A stretch of DNA of 62,832 nucleotides, the filler included, from Stramenopiles sp. TOSAG23-6 (taxonomy: Eukaryota): the NCBI GenBank assembly GCA_900128565.1. It is 35 parts of 35 records of this genome, joined end to end, with 100 filler letters (N's around TTAATTAATTAA, not from the genome) between each part and the next. Parts side by side here need not be neighbours in the genome. Positions count along the whole stretch, not along the records: positions 45,059 to 46,752 come from LT638701.1; 34 more parts are not named here. One strand, 5' to 3'. Under the pieces are notes generated by a model, which was not told where the DNA came from, did no database searches, and saw nothing but the letters and a program-made list of their open reading frames with translations. Below, one piece after another: positions 9,040-59,265 of this stretch. Each line of letters starts with the position of its first letter. Positions within the stretch are counted from its first letter, which is position 1. The translations under genes were made by a program, and so were the position numbers.

Positions 9040-9070
<31 letters not shown>

Positions 9071-9202
9071 TACGAAATTTTGTACCTAACAAAAAAAAAT
9101 ATAAAAATATTTTTTTTTTTTTCAATTTCGAATTTGTTTTTTTTGTACGAAATTTTGTACCTAACAAAAACAAATATAAAAATATATTTTTTCACAATAC
9201 AT

Positions 9203-16318: not shown

Positions 16319-17412
16319 GTAGATCACCCCATAGGCCGAATCCAATTGGTTTAAGTCTTTGTCAGATTGACAGTATCGATGCAAAAAATAATACTGTGAA
16401 TCTTTCTGGGATAGATCTTTTGGATGGCACACCAGTGATAGATATAAAACCATACTTGACATCTGATATAATAGAGAGTAATTTTCAAATTTCATTTTTG
16501 AATGCATTAATTTTTTTCATCAAAAATATTTTGTACCTAACGGTTTTTTTACACCAGCAAAAAAACAATATTTTTCACAATATATAGGTACGTGTCCCAG
16601 ACTGGATTAAACCACAGACATGCCAAAAAATGCTTAATGTGCATTTTTCTAAGAATGCCAAAGAGGGTATAAAGACAATATCTTCAATTTTTTCCAAATT
16701 CTATCAAAGTGAGAATAAAACGAAACAAAATTCTTCTACACATTTCAAGTTTTTCCCCTTTGAAGATGTTGCAACTGTAGAACGTAGTATTGAACAGTTG
16801 CTTCAACTAAACCCAGCAAGAGGTGTTGATCCTTTAAGCCCGAGAGCGCAAGCATGTATGTTTTAATTTTTTTTTCAATTTTGAATTTATTTTTCGTACG
16901 AAATTTTGTACCTAACAATTTTTTTTCGAAATATTTTTCCAAAATACATCTTTAGTATCAAAAGGACAAGATACAAAACAACCAAAAGAATTAATGGGAA
17001 AATCATGGCTTGGTCCATATATTATTGAGGTTGGTGGACTTTCAGTCCGATTTTGGAAGAATGTACATTTCCCCTAACCCTAACCTTAATTTCGAATTTA
17101 TTTAACTATTTATTCATGGAAATTTTTGTCCTCACGATTTTTTTTATTACATTTTTCAAATTTTTTTTTCACACAACAAATGAAGAGGATATTTTGCAAA
17201 GGACCTTATGTGATAGTTTCAATACTGAGATAGCTGTGAGTATTTCATGCAGTGCGAAAGAAAATACTAAAGAAAATACTAAAGAAAATACTAAAGAAAA
17301 GAGGAAAGAAAATACTAAAGAAAATACTAAAGAAAATACTAATGAAAATTCAGGTTCTGTATTTGTAGAAGACATACAACCCAATAGTACTCTTTTGAAA
17401 GAAATAATGTAG
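16319..17412 (+). CDS. TRMO: tRNA (adenine37-N6)-methyltransferase TrmO/TsaA, 3' part (introns 16478-16585, 16856-16949, ~17063-17181)
   Basis: RSPHRPNPIGLS, GIDLLDGTPVIDIKPY and RVPDW motifs. Confidence 0.88.
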
Positions 17413-17485
17413 ACAAATTTGATAGTGTTGTATAATTTATAAACAAATTTATTAGGGTTTAGGGTTAGGGTTAGGTATAATTACT

Positions 17486-18068: not shown

Positions 18069-18867
18069 AGGTATTAATGGTTAGAGCCTGTATAATTTGG
18101 TGTGTTATGCGTTCATCTTCAACTGTATTAGAGTCTAAATTATTACGTCATATAATGTTTATCATCTTACGCGAAATTGAAGCATATAATGAAAAAAGAC
18201 AAATTCGTGGATTATTGGCTTTGTCGTATATCATTAAATGTATTACACCAACTGAATTGATCTGGCATTCGCATTTACTAATTGACATTCTCCTGCGAGG
18301 AATTTCATCAAGAGATGTACGTTTTCATTATGAATTTCTGTCTACTCTATTGAAATCATTCCCATTACTTCCTACAAATAATGAAGGAAATATTATGAAA
18401 ATAGCCTTTCTAAATGGAATTTCAAAATTAGTTCATACATTAGGTATTGAAAGTATTCAGTATTTTTCAATTCTTTTTCCAATTTTATCTGAAATGGCTA
18501 CTTTGCCATTATGTATATTTGATCAAGATTGGAAGAAAAATGATTACAACAAAGAAACATCGTCTATTTTTCAAATTAGAATTTCGGCCTTGATTGCTTT
18601 TGAAACATTGATTACATCAACATGGCCTCGAATAATGAATCATTTATCGCATCAGAGAAAGATTCTTACTGTTGTTGTGTCTGCATACACATCTTCACCC
18701 AGACAATGGGTGCGTGGTNNNNNNNNNNNNNNNNNNNNNNNNNNNNNNNNNNNNNNNNNNNNNNNNNNNNNNNNNNNNNNNNNNNNNNNNNNNNNNNNNN
18801 NNNNNNNNNNNNTTTAAGTGATGCAAATTTGAATGAGTTATTAAGAAAATTGAAGAATTATAAATGA
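18069..18867 (+). CDS. TTI2: TELO2-interacting protein 2-like, C-terminal part
   Basis: HEAT-like helices with LGIESIQYFSILFPIL and LITSTWPRI. Confidence 0.6.
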
Positions 18868-19075
18868 GTGTAGATGTGCAATGTCACTTAGCTATCATAT
18901 TGGTAAATGTAGATTTTGAAAATATCAATGATATCATCTTCATTTTTTTAGTATAATTTTATATTTTGAAATATAGCTTTTAAAAGAAAAAAGAATAAAT
19001 TTTAAAAATACTAAGAGTACTTCAAAACTTTTAATAAAGGTTCAAAATAGATCATATATATATATATGTATAATA

Positions 19076-19773
19076 TCAAGCAAGGGCTTCAATATTAGCA
19101 CAATCGTTTCCAGAATATCCAGCGAAGCAGACACATTGTCCAGTTGAATAGTCACACATCCCTCGACCTGAGCAATCTCGACCTTTTGAATTTNNNNNNN
19201 NNNNNNNNNNNNNNNNNNNNNNNNNNNNNNNNNNNNNNNNNNNNNNNNNNNNNNNNNNNNNNNNNNNNNNNNNNNNNNNNNNNNNNNNNNNNNNNNNNNN
19301 NNNNNNNNNNNNNNNNNNNNNNNNNNNNNNNNNNNNNNNNNNNNNNNNNNNNNNNNNNNNNNNNNNNNNNNNNNNNNNNNNNNNNNNNNNNNNNNNNNNN
19401 NNNNNNNNNNNNNNNNNNNNCATTTACCAGTATCTCTGTCGCACTCTCCAGCATCGGAACATTCAACGTCGTCAATGTGGCTTGAAATCTTTGTTTTTAT
19501 GATACGATATGAATCTGTTACAGCTAAACGCCTTCGACCATTATCCTCAGTTTTACTCAGTCGTCGTGCTACATTCTCGCCATCGTTGTTACAATTTTCG
19601 AGTAATGTATCAGGGTCTGGTACCCAGGGAGTACATTCGTGAGTGTCGGTGTCACACGTGTGCTTGTAGCAAGTTCCAGAAGTTGAATCTGATGCAACAA
19701 CCCCTTGTGTCCAAGAAATTCCGCGAGGGCAAGTGTGCAATGAGCAATCAGCGCCAGTCAAATATACGGTTTG
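19076..19773 (-). CDS. Redundant copy of the mastigoneme EGF gene at 31215-32122
   Basis: About 18815-19750 is the reverse complement of about 31448-32385. Confidence 0.85.
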
Positions 19774-19960: not shown

Positions 19961-21577
19961 ACCTGTGGAACAGATATTTTCAGCACACGCTCTATTACAT
20001 GTATTGTGAAAAATGTAGAAATTCGAAATTGGTCAAATAATTTGTACTCTTTTACATGTTCAATTCATGATGAAAATATACATTTCAAAAAAAAAATCTT
20101 TTTTGTTTTTTAAAAGAAAATCTCACATGAAAAAAAAATAGGGTTAGGGTTTGTACACTTCATGATGAAAACATACATGAAACACAGATATTGCAATTTG
20201 AGACGCCACCTCTGAAGATGGTATTTTTTCTTGCAACAAAGATGGATCTCTAATTATATCTGACACCACAGTAGTATTAGTTGTGAGAGCAAATAATTGA
20301 GCATACATTTCCTGTCCCGCAAGTCCAGCCACTCCAAATTGGCCATCCTTCAAAGAATCTCCAATAACGCCGTCGACATGGATTATAAAAAAATATTTAA
20401 AAAAAAACTTAAATTTGTTAGGTACAAAATTTCGTATGAAAAAAAACAATTTCGAAATTAAAAAAAATGAAAACGTACATACACTACAGATGATTTTAGA
20501 TCTGGAAGTACCCATTGTGCGGCCATGGATATAATTAGCAATGAGAAAAAAACAAGCTCAGCACAACGGCGAAGAAGCCAACCTCTTCTAATGCGTTTTG
20601 TTCTAGGATCTATATTCTGGGAAAATATTTCAAAATTTTCAAAATGTTTTGTTAAGTACAAAATTTTCTATCAAAAAAAAAAATCCAAATTGAAATGAAA
20701 ACACATACATTGTAATTCATATACTAAAGTTGGAACTGCCATAAAATAATAAAGTTCAGAAATTGATAAATTTTCAGGCCATTTGACAACTTTCCTATCT
20801 TGGCAATCAATATTTAACACATTCTTTATTTTGTTCATTTGTGGTGATTTTTTTCTCGTACCGCCTCTTTCTCCGTTAGGGTTAGGGTTAGGGATTTGAA
20901 TGTCTCTAGAATAATCTGTAGGTAAGGATTCATTATTATTAGAATCATCAGGATATTCAGATCCTTCAATAATCGGAGAAAATACAGGTGAACTCCGATC
21001 ATTTTGTTGTGTCGATGCATTCGTACCAAATTTTGTTCCTGAAAAAGTACTCTTTGACATTTTTGTGCCAGATATTTGTTTAGGGTTAGGGCTTTTAACG
21101 TCAACTGTAGTAGTTTGAGTTCGAAGCTCCCAATTCACATGAGCATAGGATATTAATTTGAAAAATGAGCACATGACACACATCATCAGCAACGCACTTT
21201 TCGCAGGGTGCGGAGCTAGAACAGTTACATAGTAGCAGGGGACGCAAAGTGATCCAGCACAATTAGTAAAATTTAACAAAAAAATTATAAACTCTGGGAG
21301 GAGATGCCTAGCAGCGATACATTCAATCAGAAGAGCTAATAGTATATTTACATTTTGGCACATGAGTAAGTTTAGCATCGGCCAATATGTAAAGAATTCA
21401 ACGCTTACAATTGGAGACTGTGGAATACCTATGACAATACCATATTTTAGGAAGTTTTCAACAACAAGACGCGAGTGTGTGATACACATAATAATTGCAA
21501 TTAAATTCATCACTCCACGGAATGAATTTTCCGGGGCCGTTGAAGACAACAAAGAAGCACGAACACGATCCGACGGT
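19961..21577 (-). CDS. DGAT1: Diacylglycerol O-acyltransferase 1 (MBOAT), partial; introns 19999-20176, 20378-20478, 20610-20708
   Basis: SLLSS, RLVVENFLKYG, KLISYAHVN, PTLVYELQYPRT and ERVLKISVP. Confidence 0.92.
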
Positions 21578-23480: not shown

Positions 23481-23545
23481 TGACAATGTTGATGTCCATC
23501 GACATATATAATGAAAAAATATTTTTCATTTGAAATTGGTCAAAA

Positions 23546-23576
<31 letters not shown>

Positions 23577-24192
23577 GTTTAGGTACGAAATTTTCTATGA
23601 AAAAAAAAAAAATTAAATTTAAATTTAAATTTAAATTTAAAATTCATGATGAAACACGTACATGAGGTGATGGACATCCTACTACAGTATGAAACCATTG
23701 TAACTGCATTTTTGCCTCACATGCTGCTTCTGAAGGAACAATTTGATTTAATGTACATGCTGTTATAAAGTCTTTCTTTCCTCGAAATGTTCTCTTTATA
23801 TTTGAAGAAGTTGAACAAGTTGATTGTGTTGTATTCACCATGCCAGTCACAATATCAGTGCAATTAACTGGAGCAAGTAAAGAAGGAATTTCTTCTGGTG
23901 AGCTCAAAGGAACACCTTCAGATAAGTTAAGGTGTAAGCCAACTCTGTGTAATAAACCCTCAGACCGTGCAATTGATATAGCTTCCATTGCATATGGTGC
24001 TCCTGCCATAATCGACGTTGCTGTACAGATACCGTCTTTCATGGCCTTTATAATACCTAGGGTTCGTTCCATACTTATACCGAAATCATCAGCTGTGATG
24101 ATAACTAAAGGTTTCATCTCCGACTTATTTGTGTTCAACTGTGATACGGTTTTCATTTCTTTAGTGTCAATTGATGATCCAATAACATTCAT
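23481..24192 (-). CDS. YDJC: YdjC/ChbG carbohydrate deacetylase, 5' part
   Basis: ITADDFG, VGLHLNLSEG and the spliced HVDGHQH. Confidence 0.9.
23504..23661 (-). mobile_element. Introner copy, GT...AT (158 nt)
   Basis: Removal restores the YdjC catalytic motif SPH-VDGHQH. An identical copy is at 36104-36261. Confidence 0.85.
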
Positions 24193-24612
24193 TATTGAAA
24201 CTTGACGCTTTGGTGTATACTACACGATCGAAATGTGTGACAAATTACTCTCTATACCTTTTTACTTTATTCTCTCTCTAAGTAATAGGTACAATATGCT
24301 GTCGTACACAATAGTAGTATCATTCGAGATGAAACTGGGTGTTGTGTATCACGAAGTACTACAATCACTGACGAATAGGAATTTCTTTACTAGCTACTAC
24401 TAGTTGGTAATTTCCGTCTAGATATAATGATGATCTAGATCTACTTCTAATCTATAATTCTTCGTCTTTGAACTTGTTTTGAAAAATCGAAAAATGAAAA
24501 ATGAAATAAATCGAAAAAAAGTAACTGTTTTACAAACTATATCTTCTTGCTGGGCACAATACTTAGCCTATAAGTTAGTATTTAGATTATTTATTTATGT
24601 ACGAATGAATCA

Positions 24613-25142
24613 ATGATAGAGAGTTATCAAGAGTTTAAAACTAGCCATGAGGAGGAGACACAGAAGGATTTGCTTTATTGTAACCAAGCAGATAGTGCGT
24701 CAAGAACAAAAGTATCAACAATACAAAATATACAAAATAATTTCCCCAATGAAAAACTTGAAAAAAAATATTTCACACCTAATGAAAAAAAGCATTTTTA
24801 TCCATGTTCTACCTCATCCTCATCTGAAGCCGAAGATATTCTTTCAATTGGATCATCCAATACACAGAAACAACTGAGAACTAGTACAAATGTCGCATGG
24901 CAAAATTTTCAAAATAAAAGAAAAATAACTCGTTCTAGAGGCATCTCGACTTTTCGTGAAAGAGCAGACGTAGCAATTGGTGCAGCAACAAGTCTTCGTG
25001 ATAAAGCGCGTGTAGGCGCGAAAGATTCTTTTGATGTAGCAATAGGTGCAGCAAAGTTAGGAGCAAAAGGGACTATTGGTGCTGCCCGTATGACCATCAA
25101 AACAACACGTGGCGCAGCTAAATTAGGTGCAAAAGGGACAAT
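24613..25142 (+). CDS. Unknown protein, first exon
   Basis: ORF from ATG to a family donor site; contains GAAKLGAKGT repeats. Confidence 0.55.
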
Positions 25143-25283
25143 GTATGTTTTNTTTTTTTNCATTTTTTTNTTNGTTTTNATACNNNNNNNNNNNNNNNNN
25201 NNNNNNNNNNNNNNNNNNNNNNNNNNNTTAATTAATTAANNNNNNNNNNNNNNNNNNNNNNNNNNNNNNNNNNNNNNNNNNNN

Positions 25284-28786: not shown

Positions 28787-28942
28787 NNNNNNNNNNNNNN
28801 NNNNNNNNNNNNNNNNNNNNNNNNNNNNNNTTAATTAATTAANNNNNNNNNNNNNNNNNNNNNNNNNNNNNNNNNNNNNNNNNNNNATTTTGTACCTAAC
28901 AAATTTAAGTTTTTTTTTTTGAAATATTTTTCCAAAATACAT

Positions 28943-30093
28943 ATGTACGAGACTCAGGAACACCTTCTTCGATTCATTTTTCAACCGACCATATATTTAG
29001 TGGGTGGAGTGATGGTCGGATTCGCTGTCATAACTCAGCCGGTGGAGATTTATTGTGGTTTATTAATGAGGCTCATGTATGTTTTATTTTTTTTCAAATT
29101 CGAATTGTTTTTTCATACGAAATTTTGTACCTAACGATATTTTTTTGAAATATTTTTCCAAAATACATAAAGTTTCTAGAAATGGCGCAGTCAGTGCCTT
29201 GAAGCTTAGCAACAACAGCAAATTTCTATTATCGGGAGGTGTATGTTTTATATGAATTTCTAATTTAATTTTTTTTTCATACGAGATTTCGTACCTAACA
29301 AATTTTAGTTTTTTTTTTTGAAATATTTTTCACAATACGTGAGAGTGGTGCTGTTAGGGTTTGGGACGTGAGAACTAAGGAACTAGTATCTCATTTGAAA
29401 GAGCACAAGTCCAAAGTATCACAAATATGTCTCTATGACGATGACGTCCACTGTTTAACATGTAGTCAAGACCGTTCATTCCTCTGTTGGGATCTTCGGG
29501 AAGAAAAGCGGATTGCAAGTCATGTTCAACGCACTGGAGGTATCAATGCGGTAGCTCTTTCCCGAGACCAAACATGTATGTTTTATTTTTTTTTTACAAA
29601 AAAATCGAATTTATTTTTCATACGAAATTTTGTACCTAACAATTTTTTTTAGATTTTTTTTGAAATATTGTTCCAAAATACACATATAGTTACTTGTGGC
29701 AAGGAAAGAATGATTACATTCTGGGATTTGAGAGATCCTACACCTGCTAAAACTATATCGCCAGCCCATGATGGTGAAGGGACATGTATAGCCATGCTCC
29801 ACAACAGTGATCATATTTTTGCTACTGGCGGAAGTGACCAAATTGTAAAACTTTGGGATGCAAGGACTGGAAAGGTTATAACGGAAGGGTATGTTTTCAT
29901 CATGAATTTCAAATTTAGTTTTTTTTTTTCATACGAAATTTTGTACCTAACGAATTTTTTTTGAAATATTTTTTTACAATACGGATTAGGGCATTCGGGG
30001 TGCATAAATGACGTACAATTTTCACCAGACGATAAGCAACTACTCTCTGTTGGGGATGATGGAAATATATTTATCTGGAACTTTTATTTGTAA
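28943..30093 (+). CDS. WD40 protein, CFAP52/WDR16-like, 3' part (four complete introns)
   Basis: SGWSDGRIR, LKEHK, ATGGSDQIVKLWD and GHSGCINDVQFSPDDKQLLSVGDDGNIFIW. Confidence 0.8.
29077..29168 (+). mobile_element. Introner copy, GT...AT (92 nt)
   Basis: GCT CAT|GTATGT...CCTAAC...AAAATACAT|AAA GTT gives EAH-KVSRNG in the WD40 gene. There is no AG after the branch point. Confidence 0.88.
29241..29340 (+). mobile_element. Introner copy, GT...GT (100 nt)
   Basis: GGA GGT|GTATGT...CAATACGT|GAG AGT restores the WD40 motif LLSGG-ESGAVRVWD. Confidence 0.88.
29889..29984 (+). mobile_element. Introner copy, GT...GG (96 nt)
   Basis: GAA GG|GTATGT...CAATACGG|A TTA GGG CAT restores EGLGHSGCINDVQFSPD. 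Confidence 0.86.
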
Positions 30094-30144
30094 TTTTGCA
30101 AAAAATAAAAAAAATTAGACTTTGGAAAAAATACAAACTTCAAC

Positions 30145-30586
30145 AAATCTTTATTGATTGTTTTCAAGTTAATTTTTTGCTTTTAAATCTTTATTGATTG
30201 TTTTCAAGTTAATTTTTTGCTTTTAAATCTTTATTGATTGTTTTCAAGTTAATTTTTTGCTTTTAAATCTTTATTGATTGTTTTCAAGTTAATTTTTTGC
30301 TTTTAAATCTTTATTGATTGTTTTCAAGTTAATTTTTTGCTTTTAAATCTTTATTGATTGTTTTCAAGTTAATTTTTTGCTTTTAAATCTTTATTGATTG
30401 TTTTCAAGTTAATTTTTTGCTTTTAAATCTTTATTGATTGTTTTCAAGTTAATTTTTTGCTTTTAAATCTTTATTGATTGTTTTCAAGTTAATTTTTTGC
30501 TTTTAAATCTTTATTGATTGTTTTCAAGTTAATTTTTTGCTTTTAAATCTTTATTGATTGTTTTCAAGTTAATTTTTTGCTTTTAA
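30145..30586. repeat. 40-bp tandem satellite AAATCTTTATTGATTGTTTTCAAGTTAATTTTTTGCTTTT, about 11 copies
   Basis: Near-perfect head-to-tail units with no spacers. Confidence 0.95.
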
Positions 30587-30686: not shown

Positions 30687-30884
30687 ATTGAGATCTCCTT
30701 GAGGAGTGTCAATAAAGGCATGGGAAAAGTGACACGAACGCTCAGAACAATCCGCACCCATAAAATTTCGATAGCATTCACACGCAGAATACGCGTTGCA
30801 TGTTCCATTACCATTACAGTCGTTTGGACACTTTGCGGAAGCAACGCCAAGGTATACAAGAAAGAGGAATAGTTGAATCTTCAT
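30687..30884 (-). CDS. Tubular mastigoneme protein (Sig1/Ocm1 family), N-terminus
   Basis: Signal peptide followed by CPNDCNGNGTC...GADCSERSCHFSHAFIDTPQGDLN. Confidence 0.8.
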
Positions 30885-31214
30885 TATGCAAAAATTAAAT
30901 CGAAGATGTAAAGATATAAACTCTTTAGAAAACGAAAAAAAGAAAATTACCGTTGGACAAAAAGATCCGTTGGATTGGGATTCGGAGATTATTTTTGGCC
31001 AATTGAAATGCGCAGTTCTGTTTTGTACCAAAATTTAGTACAATGAAGAAGGGTTGCCATCAGAATTCGTAAAAAGTCATTTTCCGTTACACGAAATTGA
31101 ATTCCAAAAATTCCAAAAAAATAAGCTCCAACGGCTAGTCAAAAGCAACGTAACCTTACTGTACACTTCACACTGGTTGAATACCCCGTTTCTTGAAAAA
31201 GAAATCTCTTCATT

Positions 31215-32122
31215 ATGTTGAAGCTCACTGTGTTTATTTTATTCTTTCTTTGTTCTGATATTGAGGCAGTTTGTCCGAATTCATGCTCGGGTCATGGTAA
31301 ATGTGATGCTCAGGATATTTGTACTTGCTTTAACGAAGGAAAGCCACTTTACTTTACAAAAGATTACGACCCAACAGCTGGAAATCAGCCTCATTATGAC
31401 AACTATGGTTCTGCAAATGTACCGATGAAAAAACGTTGGACTGGTGCTGATTGCTCATTGCACACTTGCCCTCGCGGAATTTCTTGGACACAAGGGGTTG
31501 TTGCATCAGATTCAACTTCTGGAACTTGCTACAAGCACACGTGTGACACCGACACTCACGAATGTACTCCCTGGGTACCAGACCCTGATACATTACTCGA
31601 AAATTGTAACAACGATGGCGAGAATGTAGCACGACGACTGAGTAAAACTGAGGATAATGGTCGAAGGCGTTTAGCTGTAACAGATTCATATCGTATCATA
31701 AAAACAAAGATTTCAAGCCACATTGACGACGTTGAATGTTCCGATGCTGGAGAGTGCGACAGAGATACTGGTAAATGNNNNNNNNNNNNNNNNNNNNNNN
31801 NNNNNNNNNNNNNNNNNNNNNNNNNNNNNNNNNNNNNNNNNNNNNNNNNNNNNNNNNNNNNNNNNNNNNNNNNNNNNNNNNNNNNNNNNNNNNNNNNNNN
31901 NNNNNNNNNNNNNNNNNNNNNNNNNNNNNNNNNNNNNNNNNNNNNNNNNNNNNNNNNNNNNNNNNNNNNNNNNNNNNNNNNNNNNNNNNNNNNNNNNNNN
32001 NNNNAAATTCAAAAGGTCGAGATTGCTCAGGTCGAGGGATGTGTGACTATTCAACTGGACAATGTGTCTGCTTCGCTGGATATTCTGGAAACGATTGTGC
32101 TAATATTGAAGCCCTTGCTTGA
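31215..32122 (+). CDS. Tubular mastigoneme-family EGF/tenascin-repeat protein (Sig/Ocm short paralog)
   Basis: Signal peptide, [42 protein letters not shown] and [14 protein letters not shown]. Confidence 0.8.
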
Positions 32123-32896
32123 TATTATACATATATATATATATGATCTATTTTGAACCTTTATTAAAAGTTTTGAAGTACTCTTAGTATTTTTAAAATT
32201 TATTCTTTTTTCTTTTAAAAGCTATATTTCAAAATATAAAATTATACTAAAAAAATGAAGATGATATCATTGATATTTTCAAAATCTACATTTACCAATA
32301 TGATAGCTAAGTGACATTGCACATCTACACTCATTTATAATTCTTCAATTTTCTTAATAACTCATTCAAATTTGCATCACTTAAANNNNNNNNNNNNNNN
32401 NNNNNNNNNNNNNNNNNNNNNNNNNNNNNTTAATTAATTAANNNNNNNNNNNNNNNNNNNNNNNNNNNNNNNNNNNNNNNNNNNNAGCAGCCATCTTGAG
32501 TCATTTTAATAAAGAGAGCAGCCATCTTGAGTCATTTTACAGGTATAGTTGCGGATAGTATATATATATCCACTTTCCTCTCTCTCTGCTAGTGAAATTT
32601 CCGTTCTTCAAAAAAAATTTAACGTATAAGAAACTGTCAAAATGATGATACAAACCTGTCGAAAAAATATTAATAAAGATTTTGATTTTTATTTTGTACT
32701 GAAAATTTGTACTTAAATTTTTGTCGCATTTTGTATTGAGATTTTGTCGGAGATTGAATCGCGTTGAATCGATCAATCCCCCGACAATTTGAACGTCAGG
32801 TTGATCACTAACAGTCAGCCACTCAATCGGTAATACTGTTGATTATATCTAAATAAACTAAATAAAAGACGAGAAAGTTCTAATATTTAACCAAAT

Positions 32897-34183
32897 ATGT
32901 TAAACTTCGTAAACTTCAACAGGAAATCCCCGAAACGTCCATTAGGTCCGCCCAGTTTAAATCGTNNNNNNNNNNNNNNNNNNNNNNNNNNNNNNNGGTA
33001 AAGACCCAAAGAAGTCCAGGGAAGTTGAAGGTGCGGTTGTTGCGGGTGCGGGTGGTGCGGGTCCAGCACCAGATAATGAATCCCCTTCATCTATTAGGGA
33101 TATCAATAGAGGGATCCCATTGTCTCCCGCAATTGCTAACAACGTATCATTTCGGACGGCTTCGCGGTTTGCGGAAGAAGATGTATGTTTATATTATAAA
33201 TTTCAGTTTTCATATGTCGAACACTGGTTTTGTACCTAACAAAAAAAAAGTTGAAATATTTTCTCACAATATATGAAACTAACCCTAAACGTAAATTGTT
33301 TTCACCGTTTGATGCCAACTCAGATGATTGGTCATCAATTAAAATGGATTTGGATGCATCACGCACCATTTCGACCATTTCGACGGGANNNNNNNNNNNN
33401 NNNNNNNNNNNNNNNNNNNNNNNNNNNNNNNNNNNNNNNNNNNNNNNNNNNNNNNNNNNNNNNNNNNNNNNNNNNNNNNNNNNNNNNNNNNNNNNNNNNN
33501 NNNNNNNNNNNNNNNNNNNNNNNNNNNNNNNNNNNNNNNNNNNNNNNNNNNNNNNNNNNNNNNNNNNNNNNNNNNNNNNNNNNNNNNNNNNNNNNNNNNN
33601 NNNNNNNNNNNNNNNNNNNNNNNNNNNNNNNNNATTTCGACCATTTCGGGAAAAATTGAAGACGTACGTGTTCATATTCTGGAATGTTTTTTTTTTCATA
33701 CGAAAATTTGTACCTAACGGAAAAAATGAAATATTTTTTCACAATATATGATGGTGGGGAATATTTTCACGATTATGTTATTTTTAATGGAAGAAAATAC
33801 ATTGGTGAAGGAGTGGCCGTTAATGGTGAAAAATGGGTGAGCTTGGAAAGTTTTGAGAAAATTTTTTCAAATTCTGGAATAAGNNNNNNNNNNNNNNNNN
33901 NNNNNNNNNNNNNNNNNNNNNNNNNNNNNNNNNATTTCGACCATTTCGGGAAAAATTGAAGACGTACGTGTTCATATTCTGGAATGTTTTTTTTTTCATA
34001 CGAAAATTTGTACCTAACGGAAAAAATGAAATATTTTTTCACAATATATGATGGTGGGGAATATTTTCACGATTATGTTATTTTTAATGGAAGAAAATAC
34101 ATTGGTGAAGGAGTGGCCGTTAATGGTGAAAAATGGGTGAGCTTGGAAAGTTTTGAGAAAATTTTTTCAAATTCTGGAATAAG
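32897..34183 (+). CDS. Unknown low-complexity protein (introns 33183-33274 and 33664-33749)
   Basis: Frames join across the family introns; large N gaps limit certainty. Confidence 0.4.
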
Positions 34184-36080: not shown

Positions 36081-36145
36081 TGACAATGTTGATGTCCATC
36101 GACATATATAATGAAAAAATATTTTTCATTTGAAATTGGTCAAAA

Positions 36146-36176
<31 letters not shown>

Positions 36177-36792
36177 GTTTAGGTACGAAATTTTCTATGA
36201 AAAAAAAAAAAATTAAATTTAAATTTAAATTTAAATTTAAAATTCATGATGAAACACGTACATGAGGTGATGGACATCCTACTACAGTATGAAACCATTG
36301 TAACTGCATTTTTGCCTCACATGCTGCTTCTGAAGGAACAATTTGATTTAATGTACATGCTGTTATAAAGTCTTTCTTTCCTCGAAATGTTCTCTTTATA
36401 TTTGAAGAAGTTGAACAAGTTGATTGTGTTGTATTCACCATGCCAGTCACAATATCAGTGCAATTAACTGGAGCAAGTAAAGAAGGAATTTCTTCTGGTG
36501 AGCTCAAAGGAACACCTTCAGATAAGTTAAGGTGTAAGCCAACTCTGTGTAATAAACCCTCAGACCGTGCAATTGATATAGCTTCCATTGCATATGGTGC
36601 TCCTGCCATAATCGACGTTGCTGTACAGATACCGTCTTTCATGGCCTTTATAATACCTAGGGTTCGTTCCATACTTATACCGAAATCATCAGCTGTGATG
36701 ATAACTAAAGGTTTCATCTCCGACTTATTTGTGTTCAACTGTGATACGGTTTTCATTTCTTTAGTGTCAATTGATGATCCAATAACATTCAT
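36081..36792 (-). CDS. YDJC: YdjC deacetylase, second assembly copy or allele
   Basis: Same protein as 23481-24192. Confidence 0.88.
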
Positions 36793-37206
36793 TATTGAAA
36801 CTTGACGCTTTGGTGTATACTACACGATCGAAATGTGTGACAAATTACTCTCTATACCTTTTTACTTTATTCTCTCTCTAAGTAATAGGTACAATATGCT
36901 GTCGTACACAATAGTAGTATCATTCGAGATGAAACTGGGTGTTGTGTATCACTAAGTACTACAATCACTGACGAATAGGAATTTCTTTACTAGCTACTAC
37001 TTGTTGGTAATTTACCGTAGATACAAACAGTAATAATTCTTCGTCTTTTTGAAGTTTGAACTTGTTGTTTTGAAAAATCGAAAAATGAAATGAAATCGAA
37101 AAAAAGAAAAAAAAGTAACTGTTTTACAAACTTCTTGCTGGGCACAATACTAAACTAAAGCCTATAAGTTAGTATTTAGATTATTTATTTATGTGCGAAT
37201 GAATCA

Positions 37207-37736
37207 ATGATTGAGAGTTATCAAGAGTTTAAAACTAGCCATGAGGAGGAGACACAGAAGGATTTGCTTTATTGTAACCAAGCAGATAGTGCGTCAAGAA
37301 CAAAAGTATCAACAATACAAAATATACAAAATAATTTCCCCAATGAAAAACTTGAAAAAAAATATTTCACACCTAATGAAAAAAAGCATTTTTATCCATG
37401 TTCTACCTCATCCTCATCTGAAGCCGAAGATATTCTTTCAATTGGATCATCCAATACACAGAAACAACTGAGAACTAGTACAAATGTCGCATGGCAAAAT
37501 TTTCAAAATAAAAGAAAAATAACTCGTTCTAGAGGCATCTCGACTTTTCGTGAAAGAGCAGACGTAGCAATTGGTGCAGCAACAAGTCTTCGTGATAAAG
37601 CGCGTGTAGGCGCGAAAGATTCTTTTGATGTAGCAATAGGTGCAGCAAAGTTAGGAGCAAAAGGGACTATTGGTGCTGCCCGTATGACCATCAAAACAAC
37701 ACGTGGCGCAGCTAAATTAGGTGCAAAAGGGACAAT
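37207..37736 (+). CDS. Second copy or allele of the unknown gene at 24613
   Basis: Identical protein; one synonymous ATA/ATT change in codon 2. Confidence 0.55.
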
Positions 37737-37986
37737 GTATGTTTTNTTTTTTTNCATTTTTTTNTTNGTTTTNATACNNNNNNNNNNNNNNNNNNNNNNN
37801 NNNNNNNNNNNNNNNNNNNNNTTAATTAATTAANNNNNNNNNNNNNNNNNNNNNNNNNNNNNNNNNNNNNNNNNNNNAATCTTTTGTATTAAACCAAAAA
37901 AAAAGAAAAAAAAAAAAAAAATTTTTTTCATAGATAATTTTGTACCTAACAAAAATATAAAAAAAATATATTTTTTCACAATAAAT

Positions 37987-39507
37987 GCCTATGCATTTTT
38001 TTCAAAAGAAGATGATCCCGATGGATCAAAATCAGCTGCGCGTACAAAAGAATTTTGTGAATCTAATATTGATCAAATTCTTTCACGTTCATCTCGCGTT
38101 GTCACTCATGAAGGAAATGCTGTACGTTCAAAGCGTTAATTTCACTTTAAAAATTAATTTTTTTTTTTCTTTTTAAAAATTATTTTTTTTTTTTTTTTTT
38201 TTTTAAAAATTTAAAAATTTTTTTTTTTTTTTTTTTTGAAAAATAATTTCGTATATACCTAACAAAATATTTAAAAAAAAATTTAAAAATATTTTTCCAA
38301 AATAAATGTTGGTGGTGGATTCTCAAAAGCAACATTTGTTAGTGATGCTGCAGGTAGTGAAGAAACTGTTGATATAAATGACCCAGATTTTTGGTCAAAA
38401 GTTGTTGGTTTACCTGAAGTTGAAGAAAATCAATATTTAGATCCTTCAGAACGTCGACGAGGTCGAAAACGAATTGATTATTCTGAAAAAGGTCAAGAAG
38501 TTGTACGTTTTTTAATTTCTAATGTTTGATCAAAAATATTTTTTTCATAGTAAATTTTGTACCTAACAAAAAAAATTTTAAAAATTTAAAATTTTTTTTT
38601 TTAAAAATTTGAAATATTTTCAATAATATATGATATTTATTCTGGTTCTGGTTCGGATTCAAGCGATGATAATGATAATCATAATCATCATACTATTGAT
38701 GAAGATATAGACGATCGATTTTGTCCAAATGAAGAAAGAAATAAAAATCATAAAAATTTGGTACAAAAAACAAGAACAAAAAAATCAAATAAAAAAAAAA
38801 CGATACCGTTGTTATCAATTTCTGATCCTTGGTCCGAAGACGAATTAATGAGAGGTTTAAAAATGATTGGATTTGTTCAATGTGGTAGTGGAGAATCTCT
38901 TGCCTCTTGGCGTAATTGTAAAAATTTTATATCTAGAGGTCGAGGTAGAACAAATCGTTCCTATGATGTTTGTTTTCAAAATTGAATTTTTTTTTTTTTT
39001 TTGGTTTTCATACGAAATTTTGTACCTAAACAAAAAAAATTTTTTTTTTTTTCAAAACATTTCGTATCTAACATTTTTTTTTTTACCAAAACATTTTCGT
39101 ACAATACATTCTATTGCATTATTATATTGTGCTGTTGTACGTTCATGTGCTGTTGCTGTCTTGGCGCATGTATGTTTTATTTAATTTTTTACAAAAAAAT
39201 CGAATTTTTTTTTTTTTTTTGGTTTTCGTACGAAATTTTGTACGTAACAAATTTTCAAAATTTTTTTTTGAAATATTTTTCCAAAATACATGAAAGAGAT
39301 TTAGCATTATATGATGCAGCACAAAAAACAACATCTAATGTGAATTCTATATTACAACAAAATCAAAATAATCCTGAAAATCCTGAAAATCAACAAAATA
39401 ATAGAATTTCTTCTAGTGTTCATTTCAAAATTAATGAATTTTACAATACGATTGATGAAGTTGATCGTAGTCAAGATATTCAAAAATTAATGACTATGAC
39501 GTCACAT
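37987..39507 (+). CDS. CHD6-9-like chromatin remodeller, region after the helicase domain (four complete introns)
   Basis: AYAFF...EFCESNIDQILSR, FSKATF and VDINDPDFWSK. Confidence 0.8.
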
Positions 39508-41469: not shown

Positions 41470-43102
41470 CTGTATGGGTTGTCACTGAGTTCATGGATGC
41501 TGGTTCAATAAAAGATTTGATGGAGCCTAAACCTATAGAAGAAAGATTTGTAAAAATCATAATGCGAGAGCTTCTCCGAGGTCTTTGTTATCTTCATGCT
41601 GACCGCAAACTTCATCGAGATGTCAAGGCTTCCAATATTCTTGTATCCTCTGAAGGTGAAATTCGTCTTTCTGATTTTGGTGTGGCAACACAATTTGCAT
41701 TTGGTAGTCGCTCGCGAGCAACTTTTGCACGTTTTCATTTTTTTTCAAATTCGATTTTTTTTTTGGTTTCGTACCACCTGAAATTATTGATGGTAAAGCG
41801 TATGATGAAAAAGCTGATATATGGTCACTTGGTATATCAGCTATAGAAATGGCGACTGGATTTCCACCTCATGCATCTGCTCATGCAAAACGAGTTCTCT
41901 ATTTAGTATCAAAACAACCTGCCCCGTCATTAGATGGACGTTTTCATGATGAATTTCAAATTTTTTTTTTTTGATTTTTTTTATACGAAATTCCGTACCT
42001 AACGATTTTTTTTCAAAAATATTTTTGTACAAAACATGGCCCTTTTTCACGATCTTTTAAAGATTTCGTCAGCTGTTGTTTGTCCAAAGATCCTACAAAG
42101 AGATCAACTGCTGCTGAACTATTGACGCATCGTTTCTTACAATCAGCAGAACCGAATAGTGTATTGTTTCATCATGAATTTTAAATTTATTTTTTTTTTG
42201 TATGAAAATTTTTTTTTTTTTTTTTTTTTTTTTATAAAATTTTTTTTTTTTTTTTTTTTTTTGAGTGTTTAACAAATTTCGAATTTGACATATATTTTTG
42301 CAATACTTGTTCTTCGATTATTAGTTTCCAGGTACCAGAAATATAAACGGAATTCTTCTAGTGAATTGAATTCAGCGCTTGGCAATACGTTAAAAAATAA
42401 AAATAAAATCTCAAGTTATGACAAGGATGAAAGTAATATGACAAAAAATATAGGAAGGGATGTATGTTTTATTTTTTTTCAATTTTGAATTTTTTTTTCG
42501 TACGAAATTTTGTACCTAACATTTTTTTTTAGATCTTTTTTGAAATATTTTTCCAAAATACATGCCGAACGATACAGTGGAGTAGAAGATGTAAACTGGA
42601 ATTTTACTCTTGTACGGTTTCATCCATTTAAAGTTTCGAATTTATATTTTTGTAAAAATTTTTTTTTTTTTAAGTTTCGAATTTATTTTTTTGTAAAAAA
42701 ATTTTTTTTTTTTAAGTTTCGAATTTATTTTTTTGTAAGTTTTTTTTTTTTTTTGTACCTCACGATTTTTGTTTTACAAAAGAAAAAATATTTTTTCACA
42801 ATACATGTAGCTCCGAGAGAGATAAAAAGTTCTTCTAGCGACGTAGATGATCAAAGCTTCAATGATTCAACCTCCCAACTACGAAAGTGTCAGGCTGTCT
42901 GTTTTATTTTTTTCAATTTCGAAACTATTTTTTTTTTTTTGGTTTTCGTACGAAATTTTGTATCTAACAAAAAAACATTTTAAATATTTTTTCACGATAA
43001 ATGTCCTCAGTGATATAGCGAACCTCAACAAAGCACTTGCTGTACAAGCAGATACTAGAAATGAAGCAAAAAAAATGAATGCATCAAAACATCGACGTAT
43101 CC
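41470..43102 (+). CDS. STE20/GCK-III-like Ser/Thr kinase, partial
   Basis: HRDVKASNIL, DFGVATQ, PEII, YDEKADIWSLGISAIEMATG and FKDFVSCCL. Confidence 0.88.
41936..42037 (+). mobile_element. Introner copy, GG...AT (102 nt)
   Basis: TTA GAT|GGACGT...AAAACAT|GGC CCT restores the kinase segment APSLD-GPFSRSFKDFV. Confidence 0.8.
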
Positions 43103-44905: not shown

Positions 44906-45111
44906 ATGTATTTTGGAAAAATATTTCAAAAAAAAAAACTTAAATTTGTTAGGTACAANNNNNNNNNNNNNNNNNNNNNNNNNNNNNNNNNNNNNNNNNN
45001 NNTTAATTAATTAANNNNNNNNNNNNNNNNNNNNNNNNNNNNNNNNNNNNNNNNNNNNTGTACCTAACAAATTTTAGTTTTTTTTTTTTGAAATATTTTT
45101 CCAAAATACAT

Positions 45112-46667
45112 GTCTGTGATCCACCCGTCATAGAGAAAATAGACAATATTGCTAACACTAACTCTAACCAGGGATTGTCAAGTACAAAATTTGGTATGAA
45201 AAATACACCAGCTCTATCGGATTACACTAAAGTTACTTTTATTCCAGATGTAAGTTTTATTTTTTTTTTTACAAAAAAATCGAATGTTTTTTCGTACGAA
45301 ATTTTGTACCTAAAAAATTTAAGTTTTTTTTTTGAAATATTTTTCCAAAATACATCTATCAAGATTTGGAGTAAACAAATTTCCAAATGGAATGTTAGAC
45401 TTGTTGAAAAAAAGAGTTTGGGATATTGCTGGTTGTACACCAAATATTTCTGTTTATTTGAATGGTGTTGCTGTTGGTATTCCACAAAAATCTGGTATTG
45501 GATTTAGTAATTTCGGAGAGTACGCATCACTATATGATAGAAAATTGAATTCTTCATCAAGTGAAGAAAAGAAAATTGAAAAATCTGCATCATTGGTATT
45601 TGCAAAACTCAACAAAAATTGGGAAATTGCGGTAACTGCATCTTCATCATCATCATTACCATCAAGTCATTTTTCTCATGTGAGTTTTCATGATGAATTT
45701 CAAATTTTTTTTTTCGTACGAAATTTTGTACCTAACCAATTTCGAATTTAATTTTTTTTACAATACATGTGAGTTTTGTCAATAAAATGGCATCATTACG
45801 TGGAGGTACTCATGTCACAGCAATCGCCGATCTCGTATGTAAACCAATTGCTGATGCGATTAATGTATGTTTTTTTTTTTTTTTACAAAAAAATCGAATT
45901 GTTTTTTCGTACGAAATTTCGTACCTAACGTTTTTTTTTTTGAAATATTTTTCCAAAATACATAAAAAACATACAGATTTACGAATTACTCCGGGTGCAG
46001 TTCGACAAAATTTGAAATTATTTGTAAATGCAAAAGTAGCAAATCCATCATTCGATAGTCAATCAAAAGAAATGCTTACAACAAAACTTTCAGCATTAAA
46101 TATCCCAAAACTGTCACCAAAAGTTGTATGGTTTATTTTTTCAATTTCGAACTTTTTTTTTTTTTCATTTTTTTTGTCTATTTTTTTTTCAAATTTTTGT
46201 ATAATTTTTTTCAAATTTTTTTTTCATACGAAATTTTGTACCTAACAAATTGTACAAAAAAAAATATTTTTTCACAATATATGTTTCCAATATTATCTCA
46301 AAATCGAATATTGTGGAAACAACTATTTTTGCAGCAAAATCTCGTCAGAAGGCAATGCTATACAAAAAAACAAAAGTTTCAAAAAATCGAATGTTAACCA
46401 TACCTAAATTATCCGATGCTAATCTTGCAGGGGGTCGTCGTAGTAGTGAATGTACACTGATTTTGACGGAAGGTGATTCAGCAAAAGCACGTTTTCATTT
46501 CAATGTTTTGTCAAAAAAAATTTTTTTGGTAGAAAATTTCGTACCTAACATTTTTTTTTTTTTGAAATATTTTTTCACAATACTTGCGCTTGCCGTCTCT
46601 GGTTTATCAGTCATAGGTAGGGATACGTATGGTGTATTTCCTCTAAAGGGAAAATTATTAAATGTAC
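45112..46667 (+). CDS. TOP2: DNA topoisomerase II, ATPase-transducer-TOPRIM fragment (five complete introns)
   Basis: FIPDLSRF, SFVN...GGTHV, NPSFDSQSKE, KLSDAN, TEGDSAKALA and FPLKGKLLNV. Confidence 0.95.
46487..46585 (+). mobile_element. Introner copy, GC...TT (99 nt)
   Basis: GCA AAA|GCACGT...CAATACTT|GCG CTT restores the TOP2 TOPRIM motif EGDSAK-ALAVSGL. Confidence 0.85.
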
Positions 46668-46852
46668 GTACGTTTTCATTATGAATTTCAAATTTATTTT
46701 TTTTTTTTCGTACGAAATTTTGTACCTAACAAATTTCGAATTTAATTTTTTTNNNNNNNNNNNNNNNNNNNNNNNNNNNNNNNNNNNNNNNNNNNNTTAA
46801 TTAATTAANNNNNNNNNNNNNNNNNNNNNNNNNNNNNNNNNNNNNNNNNNNN

Positions 46853-54109: not shown

Positions 54110-55633
54110 GATTATTACAAGCAATGCGTGGATTATCTTTTGGCAGACATTATTGGCATTTAAAAGTCGTTCGCTCTGGTTCAACTGGAATCTGCGTAGG
54201 GGTAACTGATGGCTCTGAAGGATCAACTTTAAATGGTGTATTAGGCTCCGACTGTCATGGGTGGGGAGTTACGTCACAGGCAATGAAAATTCATAATGGA
54301 AAGTTTGAACGTTTTGGTATTCCATTTGAAGATGGTTCACATTTAATAGTGGTACTTGAGTTAGGTAAACGAACAAAGTATAATAACCCTAACCATAATT
54401 ATAATACGAAAGATACAAAACAAAATGTAGATAATGATATACAATATAATCGTGGGACTCTCTCTCTAATCGTTGATGGCGTTCATTTAGGAGTCGTGTT
54501 CGATAATATGTTACCCACATTTGCTTCAAAATCAAATTCTGGTAATGGTAAACAAATTTCATATGAAAATTCATATGAAATGTGTGCTCCTCAACTTTTC
54601 CCAGCAGTTTCATTGTCTAGTGGGGCAGAAGTTTGGATCAAAGGTCATGTATGTTTTATTTTTTTTTTAAGAAAAAAATCGAATTTATTTTTCGTACGAA
54701 ATTTTGTACCTAACAAATTTTTAAAGATTTTTTTGAAATATTTTTACAAAATACATGTTTTTGAGAGCGATGACGTCATTTCGTCTCGAAGAACAGAGGC
54801 AGCCAGAGCATTGGAGCGTCATCTGAAAGAACTTCGACAAAAATTAAGAAATAATACAGACCCAGTGGCACAATTATCGATAATGCACGTTTTATATGAA
54901 TTTCTAATTTATTTCCAAATTTTTTTTTTCATACGAAATTTCGTACCTAACAAATTTTTAAATTTTTTTTTTGAAATATTTTGTCAAATATATGCGTAAA
55001 CTTGGAGCAACATTATCACGACGACGTTTGCCTGCACGAGTCCCCGTAGATCCTTTGCAGATGGAACGAGATTTATGTACGTTTTTCATCATAAATTGTT
55101 GTTTCTACATTTGTTTTTTCATACGAAATTTTGTACCTAACCAAAACAAAATTTATTTGTGAAAAAAAAAAAAATATTTTTTCTCATTACATGTCGAGAA
55201 AATATCATTGTGAATGGTACGGTAGTGGGGGAACATTTGGCAGACCATCGCGGGATATCTGACTTAAAGTACAAACTGAGTGATCAAATTATAAATACAC
55301 TTCGTAGTGGCGGTAATAGTCAGAAATATTTGCCTAACCCTACAAACCCTAATAGTTTGGAACAATGGTCTTTAGAATTAGTTGATTGGGCTTTACAAGC
55401 CGCTACTCGTACGGTTTCTGGTGGTGATTCTTATTTTGCAATTTTTAGTTTATATGATGATCCTGATGTGGTTGTAACTCCTGCGCACAATGTGTCTAAT
55501 CCTCTGACTAGCATTGACATTACTGAAGATGGGATCGTTGTGCGTACCTATAATTTATATGACGTAGTTAAAAGAAGTTCATCTATGAGTGATCATGTGC
55601 ACAGTGGTTCTGATGTTCTTCGATTTGAGACAG
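54110..55633 (+). CDS. SPRY-domain protein (introns 54649-54755, 54885-54993, 55077-55192)
   Basis: GRHYWHLKV, ICVGV, GTLSLIVDGVHLGVVF and LFPAVSL. Confidence 0.75.
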
Positions 55634-57592: not shown

Positions 57593-59265
57593 ATCCACCG
57601 ATCCTCGCCATCTTCAGTTTTCTAGTCATAATATTCGATGTTATACTCATGAGCAGAATTCTCAACATGATTCGATTGGTGTTCGTTCAGCAGGTAATTC
57701 TCCTGTTTCTACTCAATTGGGTCATGTACGTTTTTCTTTCAATTTTTTTTCTACATTTTTGTTTTCGTACGAAATTTTGTACCTAACAATCTTTCAAATT
57801 TTACAAAAAAAAAATATTTTCCAAAAATTACATCGTCCTTTGATTCGTTCAGCAGGTAATTCTCCTGTTTCTACTCAATTGGGTCATCGACGTTTTTCTT
57901 TTTCTCATGAATTCGAAAGTACATCCAACGTCAACAATGATAATAATATCGATGATACTTTTAAAACTCCACGTAGAAGTCCACCTGGATTTAATTGTTC
58001 TATTTCACCTAATTCTAAATCTTGTGGACACCCAGGTCGTATTTTTTTTTTTTTCAATTTTTATTTTATTTAATTTGTTTTTCGTACGAAATTATGTACC
58101 TAACAAATTTTTTTAGATTTTTTTTTGAAATATTTTTTCACAATATATGTTGTGTTTGTGATAGTTTCTGTATCAATAATGGTATGAAACAAAAAAATGG
58201 AAATGAATTATTTGGAGATGTGTATGTTTTTCATCATGAATTTTAAATTGTTTTTTAATACGAAATTTTGTACCTAACAAAAAAAACCAAAACTTTTTTT
58301 TTTTATGTTTTTCATCATGAATTTTAAATTTTATTTTTTTTCATACGAAATTTCGTATCTAAANTTTTTTTTTTNGAAATATGTTTTCTTTTCACAATAT
58401 ATGAATTATTCACCTTTTCCGAAATATCGTAGTTTATCCGATGAGATATCTGTTGATTCAAATGTAAAAACTGTGAAAAAAACCTGTACAAAGTTAAAAT
58501 CTTGTGCAGTGCCGTGGGTACCTTCGTTACACATGAAGCAGCGAGAAGAAAAAAGTCGTTGGACCGTAGCTGACAAATCCATAGATAGGTGTATGTTTTA
58601 TTTGTTTTTTGTATGAATTTTTTTTTTTGGTTTCGTACGAAATTTTGTACCTAACAAAATTTTTTTTTTTTTGTTTTTTGTATGAATTTTTTTTTTGGTT
58701 TCGTACGAAATTTTGTACCTAACAAATTTTTTTTTTTTTTTTGAAATATTTTTCCAAAATACATCAGGATCGTACAATATTTTCAAAGATTCGTGTCTTT
58801 TACATGATGTACGTTTTCATTTCATTTCAATTTTTTTTTGAAATATTTTTTTTTTTTGGTTTTCATACGAAATTTTGTACCTAACATTTTTTTTGAAATA
58901 TTTTTTCATAATTCATGTTACTTCTGTTGAAGAATTGTCTAATTCGAATAATTCGTCTTTATTTTCTAAAGTATTTGAGAATAGTTTCCCCATGGAAAAA
59001 TTTTCTACGAAACAATTTTTTAATTATAATGATACTATTCTTAGTCAATTGAATATGGAATCCAAAAAATCCAAAAAATCACATGGACCGATAGGTGCCG
59101 AAAGAGGTGCAATTGTACTGGCTAATGTATGTTTTTTTTTTTTTTTTTTTTTTTACCGAAAAAAAAAAAAATCGATTTTTTTTTTTTTTTTTTTTTTCGT
59201 ACGAAATTTTGTACCTAAAAAATTTTTTTTTTCAAATATTTTTCCAAAACACGTAGGATTGGTCA
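57593..59265 (+). CDS. Unknown intron-dense gene (at least six family introns)
   Basis: Short exons separated by family introns; no recognised domain. Confidence 0.5.

Follow-up and report, generated by a model that had tools for sequence, protein, structure and literature searches.

What is the 99-nucleotide (nt) element that interrupts a topoisomerase II (TOP2) gene of Stramenopiles sp. TOSAG23-6, and at which bases is it removed? The element lies at positions 46487-46585 (plus strand) of a 62,832-base stretch of DNA, hereafter the window, which is made up of 35 contigs of ~1.7 kb each with N44-TTAATTAATTAA-N44 linkers between them and is not a single locus. The contig in question (45059-46752) holds part of the TOP2 gene. 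We consider it probable (roughly 0.8) that the 99 nt are a spliceosomal, U2-type-like intron of a very abundant introner (mobile-element-like intron) family in an uncultured marine stramenopile, and comparison with homologues supports a 3' cut that would fall exactly two bases after the motif AATAY. Introns of this family end in YAT, not in YAG; the end pair is AT in 87% of copies and often repeats the two exon bases before the donor. The TT that closes the TOP2 element is, like AG, AC, GT and GG, a rare and probably tolerated variant of that end.

The splice register at the TOP2 junction and elsewhere

The features at the TOP2 junction are as follows.
46337-46486, plus strand: TOP2 exon ending ..TLILTEGDSAK, a TOPRIM motif (translation ..ECTLILTEGDSAK; from PDB search and alignment with P0004)
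46487-46585, plus strand: intron of 99 nt, member of the repeat family, in the GC..TT register; CA..TG and AC..GC are equivalent
46487-46492, plus strand: donor GCACGT, a T-to-C variant of GTAYGT
46538-46549, plus strand: branch-site-like block TTCGTACCTAAC
46579-46585, plus strand: terminal motif AATAC, then the last intron bases TT (AT in most copies)
46586-46667, plus strand: next TOP2 exon, ALAVSGLSVIGRDTYGVFPLKGKLLNV; the next family copy begins at 46668 and is cut off by the contig end

The element reads GCACGTTTTCATT...TTCGTACCTAAC...TTTTCACAATACTT, its last part also being given as GAAATATTTTTTCACAATACTT, and nhmmer matched 46487-46583 to model positions 1-96 (E 6e-12). A sequence-only reading of this DNA had described the flanks as AA versus TT, and this is what we found: the upstream flank ..GATTCAGCAAAA ends in AA, the last two intron bases are TT and the downstream flank is GCGCTTGCC... 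The same reading was right that removal from GC to TT gives EGDSAK-ALAVSGL and that a cut 2 nt upstream gives EGDSAI. Removal of the 99 nt joined ..LTEGDSAK to ALAVSGL (messenger RNA (mRNA) ..GCA AAA|GCG CTT..; translation of 46586-46670, ALAVSGLSVIGRDTYGVFPLKGKLLNVR), while the -2 shift would read ..GCAATTGCG.., with Ile. The residue at the junction was L, I and N at shifts of -3, -2 and -1, respectively, and K at 0, +1, +2 and +3. K followed EGDSA in 120/120 TOP2 homologues among the matches listed (scored by motif) and in 105/105 aligned full-length homologues; a source of bias is that the matches had been ranked against a query that ends in K. P0004, the closest homologue, reads EGDSAKALAMSG across the junction (also EGDSAKALAMSGVSVVG). 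In the PDB search, human TOP2A/B aligned through the K, and yeast and a few other chains aligned only to the preceding residue; at this position, K thus prevails without being universal. With GC at either border, shifts of 0, +1 and +2 yield identical mRNA here, and the junction taken alone thus rules out upstream registers only. The earlier claim that it fixes the register stood against upstream shifts and fell against +1 and +2.

The suggestion that copies with mismatched flanks be scored for orthologue residues could be followed in the 47 complete, non-duplicate family copies that we curated from the window, with duplicates counted once. The GT-start register was favored at 5/5 scored junctions with unequal flanks, which comprised two in TOP2 (the junction above and one sibling) and one each in a DGAT1-like, a WD40 and a TrmO gene. 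The four further junctions are listed here.
46126-46282, plus strand: sibling TOP2 intron, GTATGG..AATATAT, flanks TT|AT; V at shift 0 versus D
20610-20708, minus strand: DGAT1-like intron, GT..AG, flanks AT|AG; ..YELQYPRTKRIR at shift 0 only, an ordinary GT..AG intron in that register
29576-29683, plus strand: WD40 gene intron, GT..AC, flanks AT|AC; Y at shift 0 versus H
16478-16585, plus strand: TrmO intron, GTAATT..ATATAT, flanks GA|AT; a stop arises 7 residues past DIKPY at shifts of -1 to -3

At the sibling TOP2 intron, the aligned column (n=105) held F in 83 sequences, L in 14, T in 2 and A, I, C, M, W and E in 1 each, with D in 0. The DGAT1-like junction gave Y at shift 0, D at -1 to -3 (with an additional Q-to-L change at -3) and C at +1 to +3 (with an additional P-to-T change at +3), so that the claim that QYPRT is obtained in the GT-start register only was upheld; among the 13 DGAT1 homologue matches, a ..[YF]PRT.. 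motif was present in 9 (Y in 4, F in 5) and was not shown in 4. The WD40 junction, at which two close orthologues carry F and V, gives moderate support to the GT-start register on the basis of these residues. At the TrmO junction, 0/120 listed homologues ended where the upstream shifts would place the stop; all extended 12 or more residues further (median 109), many of those listed as far as a ..VPDW.. motif that resembles the one of the next exon here. Directly behind the intron end (..ATATAT|; 16585-16600, plus strand), that exon starts with AGGTACGTG, which looks like a donor but in the only open register codes for E-K-V-R-V-P-D-W. The DGAT1 and WD40 junctions rule out downstream shifts, and shift 0 was the sole register that fitted all five junctions together. 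The proposed rule that the donor is G(T/C)AYGT and that the intron ends 2 nt after AATAY therefore held at each of the five; its rider, "whatever those two bases are", did not, since they are AT in 41/47 copies.

Removal in the GT-start register also restored whole reading frames. Splicing all five complete TOP2 copies in this way gave one open frame of ~335 codons, colinear with P0004, which is also the best full-length homologue (205/338 residues identical); four of the junctions aligned gapless, and the fifth had a 1-residue gap three residues away. In the WD40 gene (contig 28887-30586), four junctions, including copies with GT|GT and GG|GG flanks, were colinear with P0136 (201/255), and P0137 matched at 157/250. 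All introns that could be placed in the TOP2, WD40 and DGAT1-like genes were family members.

A family of short probable introns that end in YAT

The family repeat is ~100 nt long and has the pattern GTAYGTTTT..TTTCGTACGAAATTTTGTACCTAAC..AAATATTTTTCCAAAATAC+NN. Its 12-mer TTYGTACCTAAC, with at most 1 mismatch, matched 68 times in the window; 0.58 matches were expected, and none of 100 shuffles gave more than 2. With a profile made from 32 copies, we obtained 76 matches covering 5,963 of 58,498 non-N bases, or ~1 copy per 0.8 kb, in genes for TOP2, DGAT1-like, WD40, TrmO, a kinase and other proteins. Two pairs of contigs are duplicates (18069-19773 and 30687-32385; 23481-25183 and 36081-37777), one pair in reverse orientation, and a 250-nt block is doubled with N between (33634-33883 and 33934-34183); uncorrected counts of copies thus come out slightly too high for the window.

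The curated copies were 86-186 nt long (median 102). Their donor hexamers were GTATGT (21), GTACGT (12), other GT-starts (11), GCACGT (2) and GGACGT (1), with G1 conserved in 47/47, T2 in 44/47, A3 in 43/47, G5 in 42/47 and T6 in 46/47. The donor dinucleotide was thus GT in 44/47, GC in 2/47 (the TOP2 copy and one at 54885) and GG in 1/47, the latter in a protein-kinase gene:
41936-42037, plus strand: family copy with donor GGACGT and AT|AT flanks; the next exon matches Pkinase
With this copy, donor position 2 occurs as T, C or G. The GTRNGT-like complementarity to U1/U6 that is a feature of U2-type introns is present in the family, the TOP2 copy at 46487 having GCACGT. A branch-site-like block, TTTGTACCTAAC, lies 32-52 nt before the intron end in 44/47 copies and is followed by T-runs; GTACCTAAC is kept in at least 90% of aligned copies and agrees with the yUnAy or TACTAAC-like branch-site consensus of U2-type introns.

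At the 3' end, the terminal motif AAATATTTTTYCAMAATAY is conserved. Each position from -9 to -4 carries a single base in 43-45/47 copies, except for -8 (A or C). At -3, 31 copies have C and 13 have T; A was found at -2 in 43 copies, and T at -1 in 44. The closing base pair of letters is therefore as conserved as the remainder of the motif, with end dinucleotides AT (41), GT (2), AG (1), AC (1), GG (1) and TT (1, the copy at 46487). On the exon side, AT precedes the donor in 30/47 copies and G is the first base after the intron in 30/47. Both flank bases are equal in 29/47 (AT|AT 27, GT|GT 1, GG|GG 1), in agreement with the earlier statement that most junctions can slide by 2 nt.

Intron lengths fell into mod-3 classes of 21/11/15 and phases of 15/12/15, as is expected of introns and not of coding inserts. 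After removal of the element, the frame stayed open over 20 codons to either side in 42/47 copies, in sense orientation, and sense orientation within unrelated genes is a feature shared with introners. The terminal inverted repeats of introners are absent, with GTA..TAC at the tips only, and the consensus RNA fold did not join the intron ends (-0.07 kcal/mol, 4 pairs only, all in an internal palindrome). This perfect 12-nt palindrome, TTTCGTACGAAA, stands just upstream of the branch block (e.g. 45291-45302), and a second subfamily carries TTTCATACGAAA. No convincing covariation was seen in TTTCGTACGAAA, whose fourth pair is U-A in 2 copies and broken in 2; it could be a protein-binding site of a mobile element. 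Four composite introns on the plus strand (9062-9201, 38968-39109, 58222-58402 and 58591-58764) each contain a tandem of two family copies, whether partial or complete, along with two branch blocks, which suggests nested insertion or internal duplication.

Outside this genome, there were 0 family matches in 80 TOP2 loci of other organisms (380 kb of JGI metagenome contigs); with a best identity of 80%, across residues 16-50, none of these loci can come from the same species. A 23-nt family block had 0 matches in viral contigs. As to the window itself, its G+C content is 25-40%, and short telomere-like runs of TTAGGG or TTTAGGG, three units each, occur inside contigs at 17452-17470 and 20876-20893; one lies within an intron-like stretch of a minus-strand gene, and the other lies upstream in the DGAT1-like contig, where it reads NPNPN in an open frame.

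Contig evidence, competing explanations and the deposited gene model

Parts of the TOP2 contig are present in eleven public runs, of which we compared two RNA runs (X8, with a poly(A) RNA contig, and X9, an "RNA other" metatranscriptome), one labelled as complementary DNA (cDNA; X7) and one seawater DNA metagenome (X3). The cDNA-labelled run bears on a sibling intron of the same gene.
45250-45355, plus strand: sibling TOP2 intron with AT|AT flanks, skipped exactly (106 nt) in the cDNA-labelled contig
This contig, record 9 of X7 (207 letters), joins 45247 to 45354 and consists of pieces 45215-45247 and 45354-45527, of 33 and 174 letters; the aligner drew the skipped 106 nt in a slid position relative to 45250-45355. 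Be it mRNA or allele, record 9 confirms the unit of "element plus one flank copy". The variant 45507 G>C is common to this record and the poly(A) RNA contig (X8, record 17). In an independent sample, the DNA metagenome X3, records 4 and 6 keep TOP2 exon-intron borders (45945-46211 and 46260-46452); the family copies are therefore not assembly artefacts. Contigs of X9 and X3 pile up on the intron repeats and hardly on exons, which indicates that the family is abundant in natural samples; depths at the repeat were summed across contigs, and we did not take them for copy numbers.

These data can be set against other explanations of the junction. The 2-nt repeat at the borders could have misled us, with the true cut lying 2 nt upstream at both ends (AT|GTATGT...AATAC|). 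AT..AC termini are a pair that spliceosomes are known to handle, both cuts would give the same mRNA in the 27 AT|AT copies, and the last three bases of every copy would be TAC or TAT, in keeping with the YAY triplet of Fritillaria. The upstream cut is nevertheless quite improbable, as it gave a non-conserved residue or a stop at 5/5 scored junctions, where its termini would be AA..AC, TT..AT, AT..AT, AT..AC and GA..AT; even in the WD40 copy, which has the AT..AC pair, H replaces the Y/F/V of the orthologues. The upstream cut would also put GTAYGT 2 nt inside the intron, out of register for pairing with U1/U6, and the 32-52 nt from branch block to intron end do not fit U12-type introns. Another explanation accepts the register but makes AT a required 3' signal, so that the TT-ending TOP2 copy would be poorly spliced, spliced elsewhere or a damaged allele, and its junction would say little about the rule. 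AT is indeed found in 41/47 copies with both bases conserved like the rest of the motif, the RNA contigs do not cover the TOP2 junction and the assembly consists of fragmentary ~1.7-kb contigs. However, both neighbouring TOP2 exons are undamaged and align colinearly with the orthologue, cuts within ±3 nt all give K apart from the upstream shifts, and the AC, GT, GG and AG endings sit in genes that are likewise colinear with orthologues. We therefore regard a strict AT requirement as unlikely.

Two alternatives remain. The 99 nt are in frame, as had been stated, and contain no stop (open reading frame 46205..46684); they could be translated as a 33-residue TOPRIM insertion, or be partly retained as in the deposited model P0003, which reads EGDSAKAQNFVPNIFFFLKYFFTILALAVSGL. 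Yet 118/120 listed homologues go straight from EGDSAK into a short conserved [ASTV]xA.., the exceptions being P0003 and one other; the same element occurs in unrelated genes, in all three phases and with lengths not limited to multiples of 3, and a sibling copy is missing from the cDNA-labelled contig. Retention is hardly credible on these grounds. Removal at the DNA level, with insertions variably present and the joined contig representing an empty site, or with assembly artefacts in their place, draws on the flag "probably DNA" on the run of that contig and on flanks that resemble a target duplication. Against it, the independent DNA metagenome has the same exon-intron borders; donor, branch block and T-tract are requirements of a spliceosome, not of a transposase; and an empty-site allele would leave the filled alleles in genes such as TOP2 still in need of splicing. 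We judge this explanation very improbable.

Several observations weigh against the intron reading as we have put it. A non-AG 3' end in 46/47 copies breaks a defining feature of U2-type introns, the YAG end, and Rfam matched no family in the whole window, which thus holds no small nuclear RNA; no splicing-factor gene was found in the window either. The RNA and cDNA-labelled contigs (X8, X9 and X7) have no cover of 46313-46483 or 46598-46654, nor of the junction 46486|46586, so the K codon rests on homology. The run X7 is flagged "RNA? (probably DNA)", and its record 9 may be spliced mRNA or an intron-less allele. In the equal-flank copies, the mRNA cannot show which bonds are cut. Of the 18/47 unequal-flank copies, 5 were scored against homologues, 3 are synonymous (6892, 33664 and 58591) and 10, in part from proteins of low conservation, were left out, namely those at 15617 (S/N), 38122 (A/D), 38503 (V/D), 42897 (A/D), 58039 (R/C), 58222 (V/M), 59127 (N/S), 61662 (D/E), 9396 and 40178. 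A target duplication has a thin basis, as the two matching flank pairs other than AT were reached in 3.2% of shuffles (permutation p = 0.03) and several 5' flanks (CT, GA, TC and CA) differ from AT at both bases.

The deposited gene model illustrates how such introns are handled. P0003 was the only identical protein in a large database (identical to exon 46337-46486), and its source label is of the MAST-3 kind; the next match was a protist protein with 80% identity, and the best full-length homologue is a EukProt protist entry. The label of P0003 and the best homologues hint that the host is an uncultured marine stramenopile of MAST-3 type. They also led us to reject a Fritillaria-like tunicate as host, an idea suggested by the published YAY and 3'AT introns and by an Atlas row in which Chordata was commonest. 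P0003 carries intron-derived residues (..EGDSAKAQNFVPNIFFFLKYFFTILALAVSGL.., ..AQNFVPNIFFFLKYFFTIL.. and ..VVWFIFSISNFFFFSFFLSIFFSNF..), and its reading ..EGDSAKAQNFVPNIFFFLKYFFTILALAVSGL.. indicates that the model imposed a GT..AG splice within the element, the remainder of which it translated. On our reading, ordinary gene models mis-splice the sibling introns of the family. Reference proteomes of this lineage are therefore likely contaminated with intron-derived peptides, which affects phylogenomics and metatranscriptome mapping.

Together, these results point to the following mechanism for a spliceosomal introner. The element carries a yeast-like donor at its first base (GTAYGT; GCACGT here) and an invariant branch-site-like block, and it may have inserted with a 2-nt target duplication or with a strong preference for ..AT|G.. 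sites, which would leave the 3' cut at the flank repeat. The host spliceosome would then accept a non-AG 3' end, probably tolerating TT, AC, GT, GG and AG there as well as any of T, C and G as the second donor base. We give slightly better than even odds to a broader proposal: that the genes of this uncultured MAST-3-type marine stramenopile are filled with a single ~100-nt introner with the 3' site YAT, that its major spliceosome routinely splices GT..AT and tolerates other ends, and that it forms an independent protist counterpart of Fritillaria. The family would have been hidden so far by gene models that assume GT-AG and therefore turn parts of the introns into protein.

Comparison with known systems

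AT-AC introns comprise U12-type and rare U2-type introns; the U12-type class is defined by AT..AC termini, a donor resembling ATATCC and a branch site that precedes the 3' end by 10-15 nt. A 2-nt upstream slide would give AT..AC in most copies of our family, but the register test rejects AT..AC, the donor is GTAYGT and not ATATCC-like, and the branch block is 32-52 nt from the end.

In the introners of algae and other protists (Micromonas, Aureococcus, Chrysochromulina and Symbiodinium), which were found among annotated introns, either the element or the duplication supplies the splice sites (Gozashti et al. 2022, PMC9860276). Our family resembles them in its hundreds of near-identical short introns in unrelated genes of an aquatic protist, and in an element that brings one splice site, with the other in or beside a short flanking repeat; insertion followed by splicing does not alter the length of the mRNA. 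In contrast, the introners of that study are GY..AG with the AG supplied by the repeat, whereas here the repeat is AT, the end is non-AG and no clear terminal inverted repeat extends beyond GTA..TAC. A search of annotated introns would consequently miss the family, which would extend the introner picture to non-AG ends that are invisible to surveys of annotated GY-AG introns. MAST and stramenopiles go unmentioned in the main text of PMC9860276; one supplementary table lists unannotated single-cell stramenopile assemblies, with no introner call for them in the portion of the table that was covered. The non-canonical introner elements of Amoebophrya carry inverted repeats of 8-20 nt, which form a hairpin that brings the two ends together; their termini are highly variable, and no U1 was found in the host (Farhat et al. 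2021, PMC7789003). The elements share with our family the repeated introns, direct repeats over the exon-intron borders, non-GT/AG termini and a marine protist host; unlike them, our introns show no pairing of the ends and keep a strong U1-type donor and a branch block.

A description of this family was not found in the literature (open-access papers and bioRxiv). Intron ends are not a topic of the papers on MAST genomes: the word "intron" occurs 2 times in PMC5778133 and "splice", "canonical" and "transpos" 0 times, and the main texts of PMC8163842 and PMC12614181 do not use "intron". In this organism, a very large introner family appears to be spliced at ends other than AG, a variation on what Fritillaria and the known introners show.

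The closest known case is that of the Fritillaria non-canonical introns. In Fritillariidae, the main intron classes are AG/AC and AG/AT, both present in F. borealis; YAY forms the last three intron bases and often stands upstream of the donor too, and ambiguous borders were placed by consensus rules (Soo et al. 2026, PMC13326754). The same paper gives 3'AT for 44% of F. pellucida introns. A review interprets the exonic TAC before Fritillariidae introns as a duplicated target from which the 3' splice site arose (PMC11282704). As in Fritillaria, the introns studied here have AT/AC ends within YAY (39/47 end in YAY, and CAT or TAT precedes the donor in 16/47), probably derive from small mobile elements, commonly show a flank repeat before the donor and have ambiguous borders that are placed by rule; the TOP2 copy at 46487, which ends in CTT, is an exception to YAY. 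Unlike in F. borealis, where introns mostly start with AG, the donor here is GT in 44/47 copies, within GTAYGT. The repeat here is 2 nt (AT) and there TAC, and a single ~100-nt family accounts for all introns in the genes checked. U2AF duplication and snRNA m6A changes have been reported for Fritillaria (PMC13326754, PMC11282704). Since the host is a stramenopile and not a chordate or tunicate, any likeness to Fritillaria is convergent. If our reading is true, the family would provide a second, unrelated system besides Fritillaria for 3' splice site choice without AG, one in which a textbook donor and branch site are kept and in which the unequal-flank copies allow the cut site to be fixed from DNA alone.

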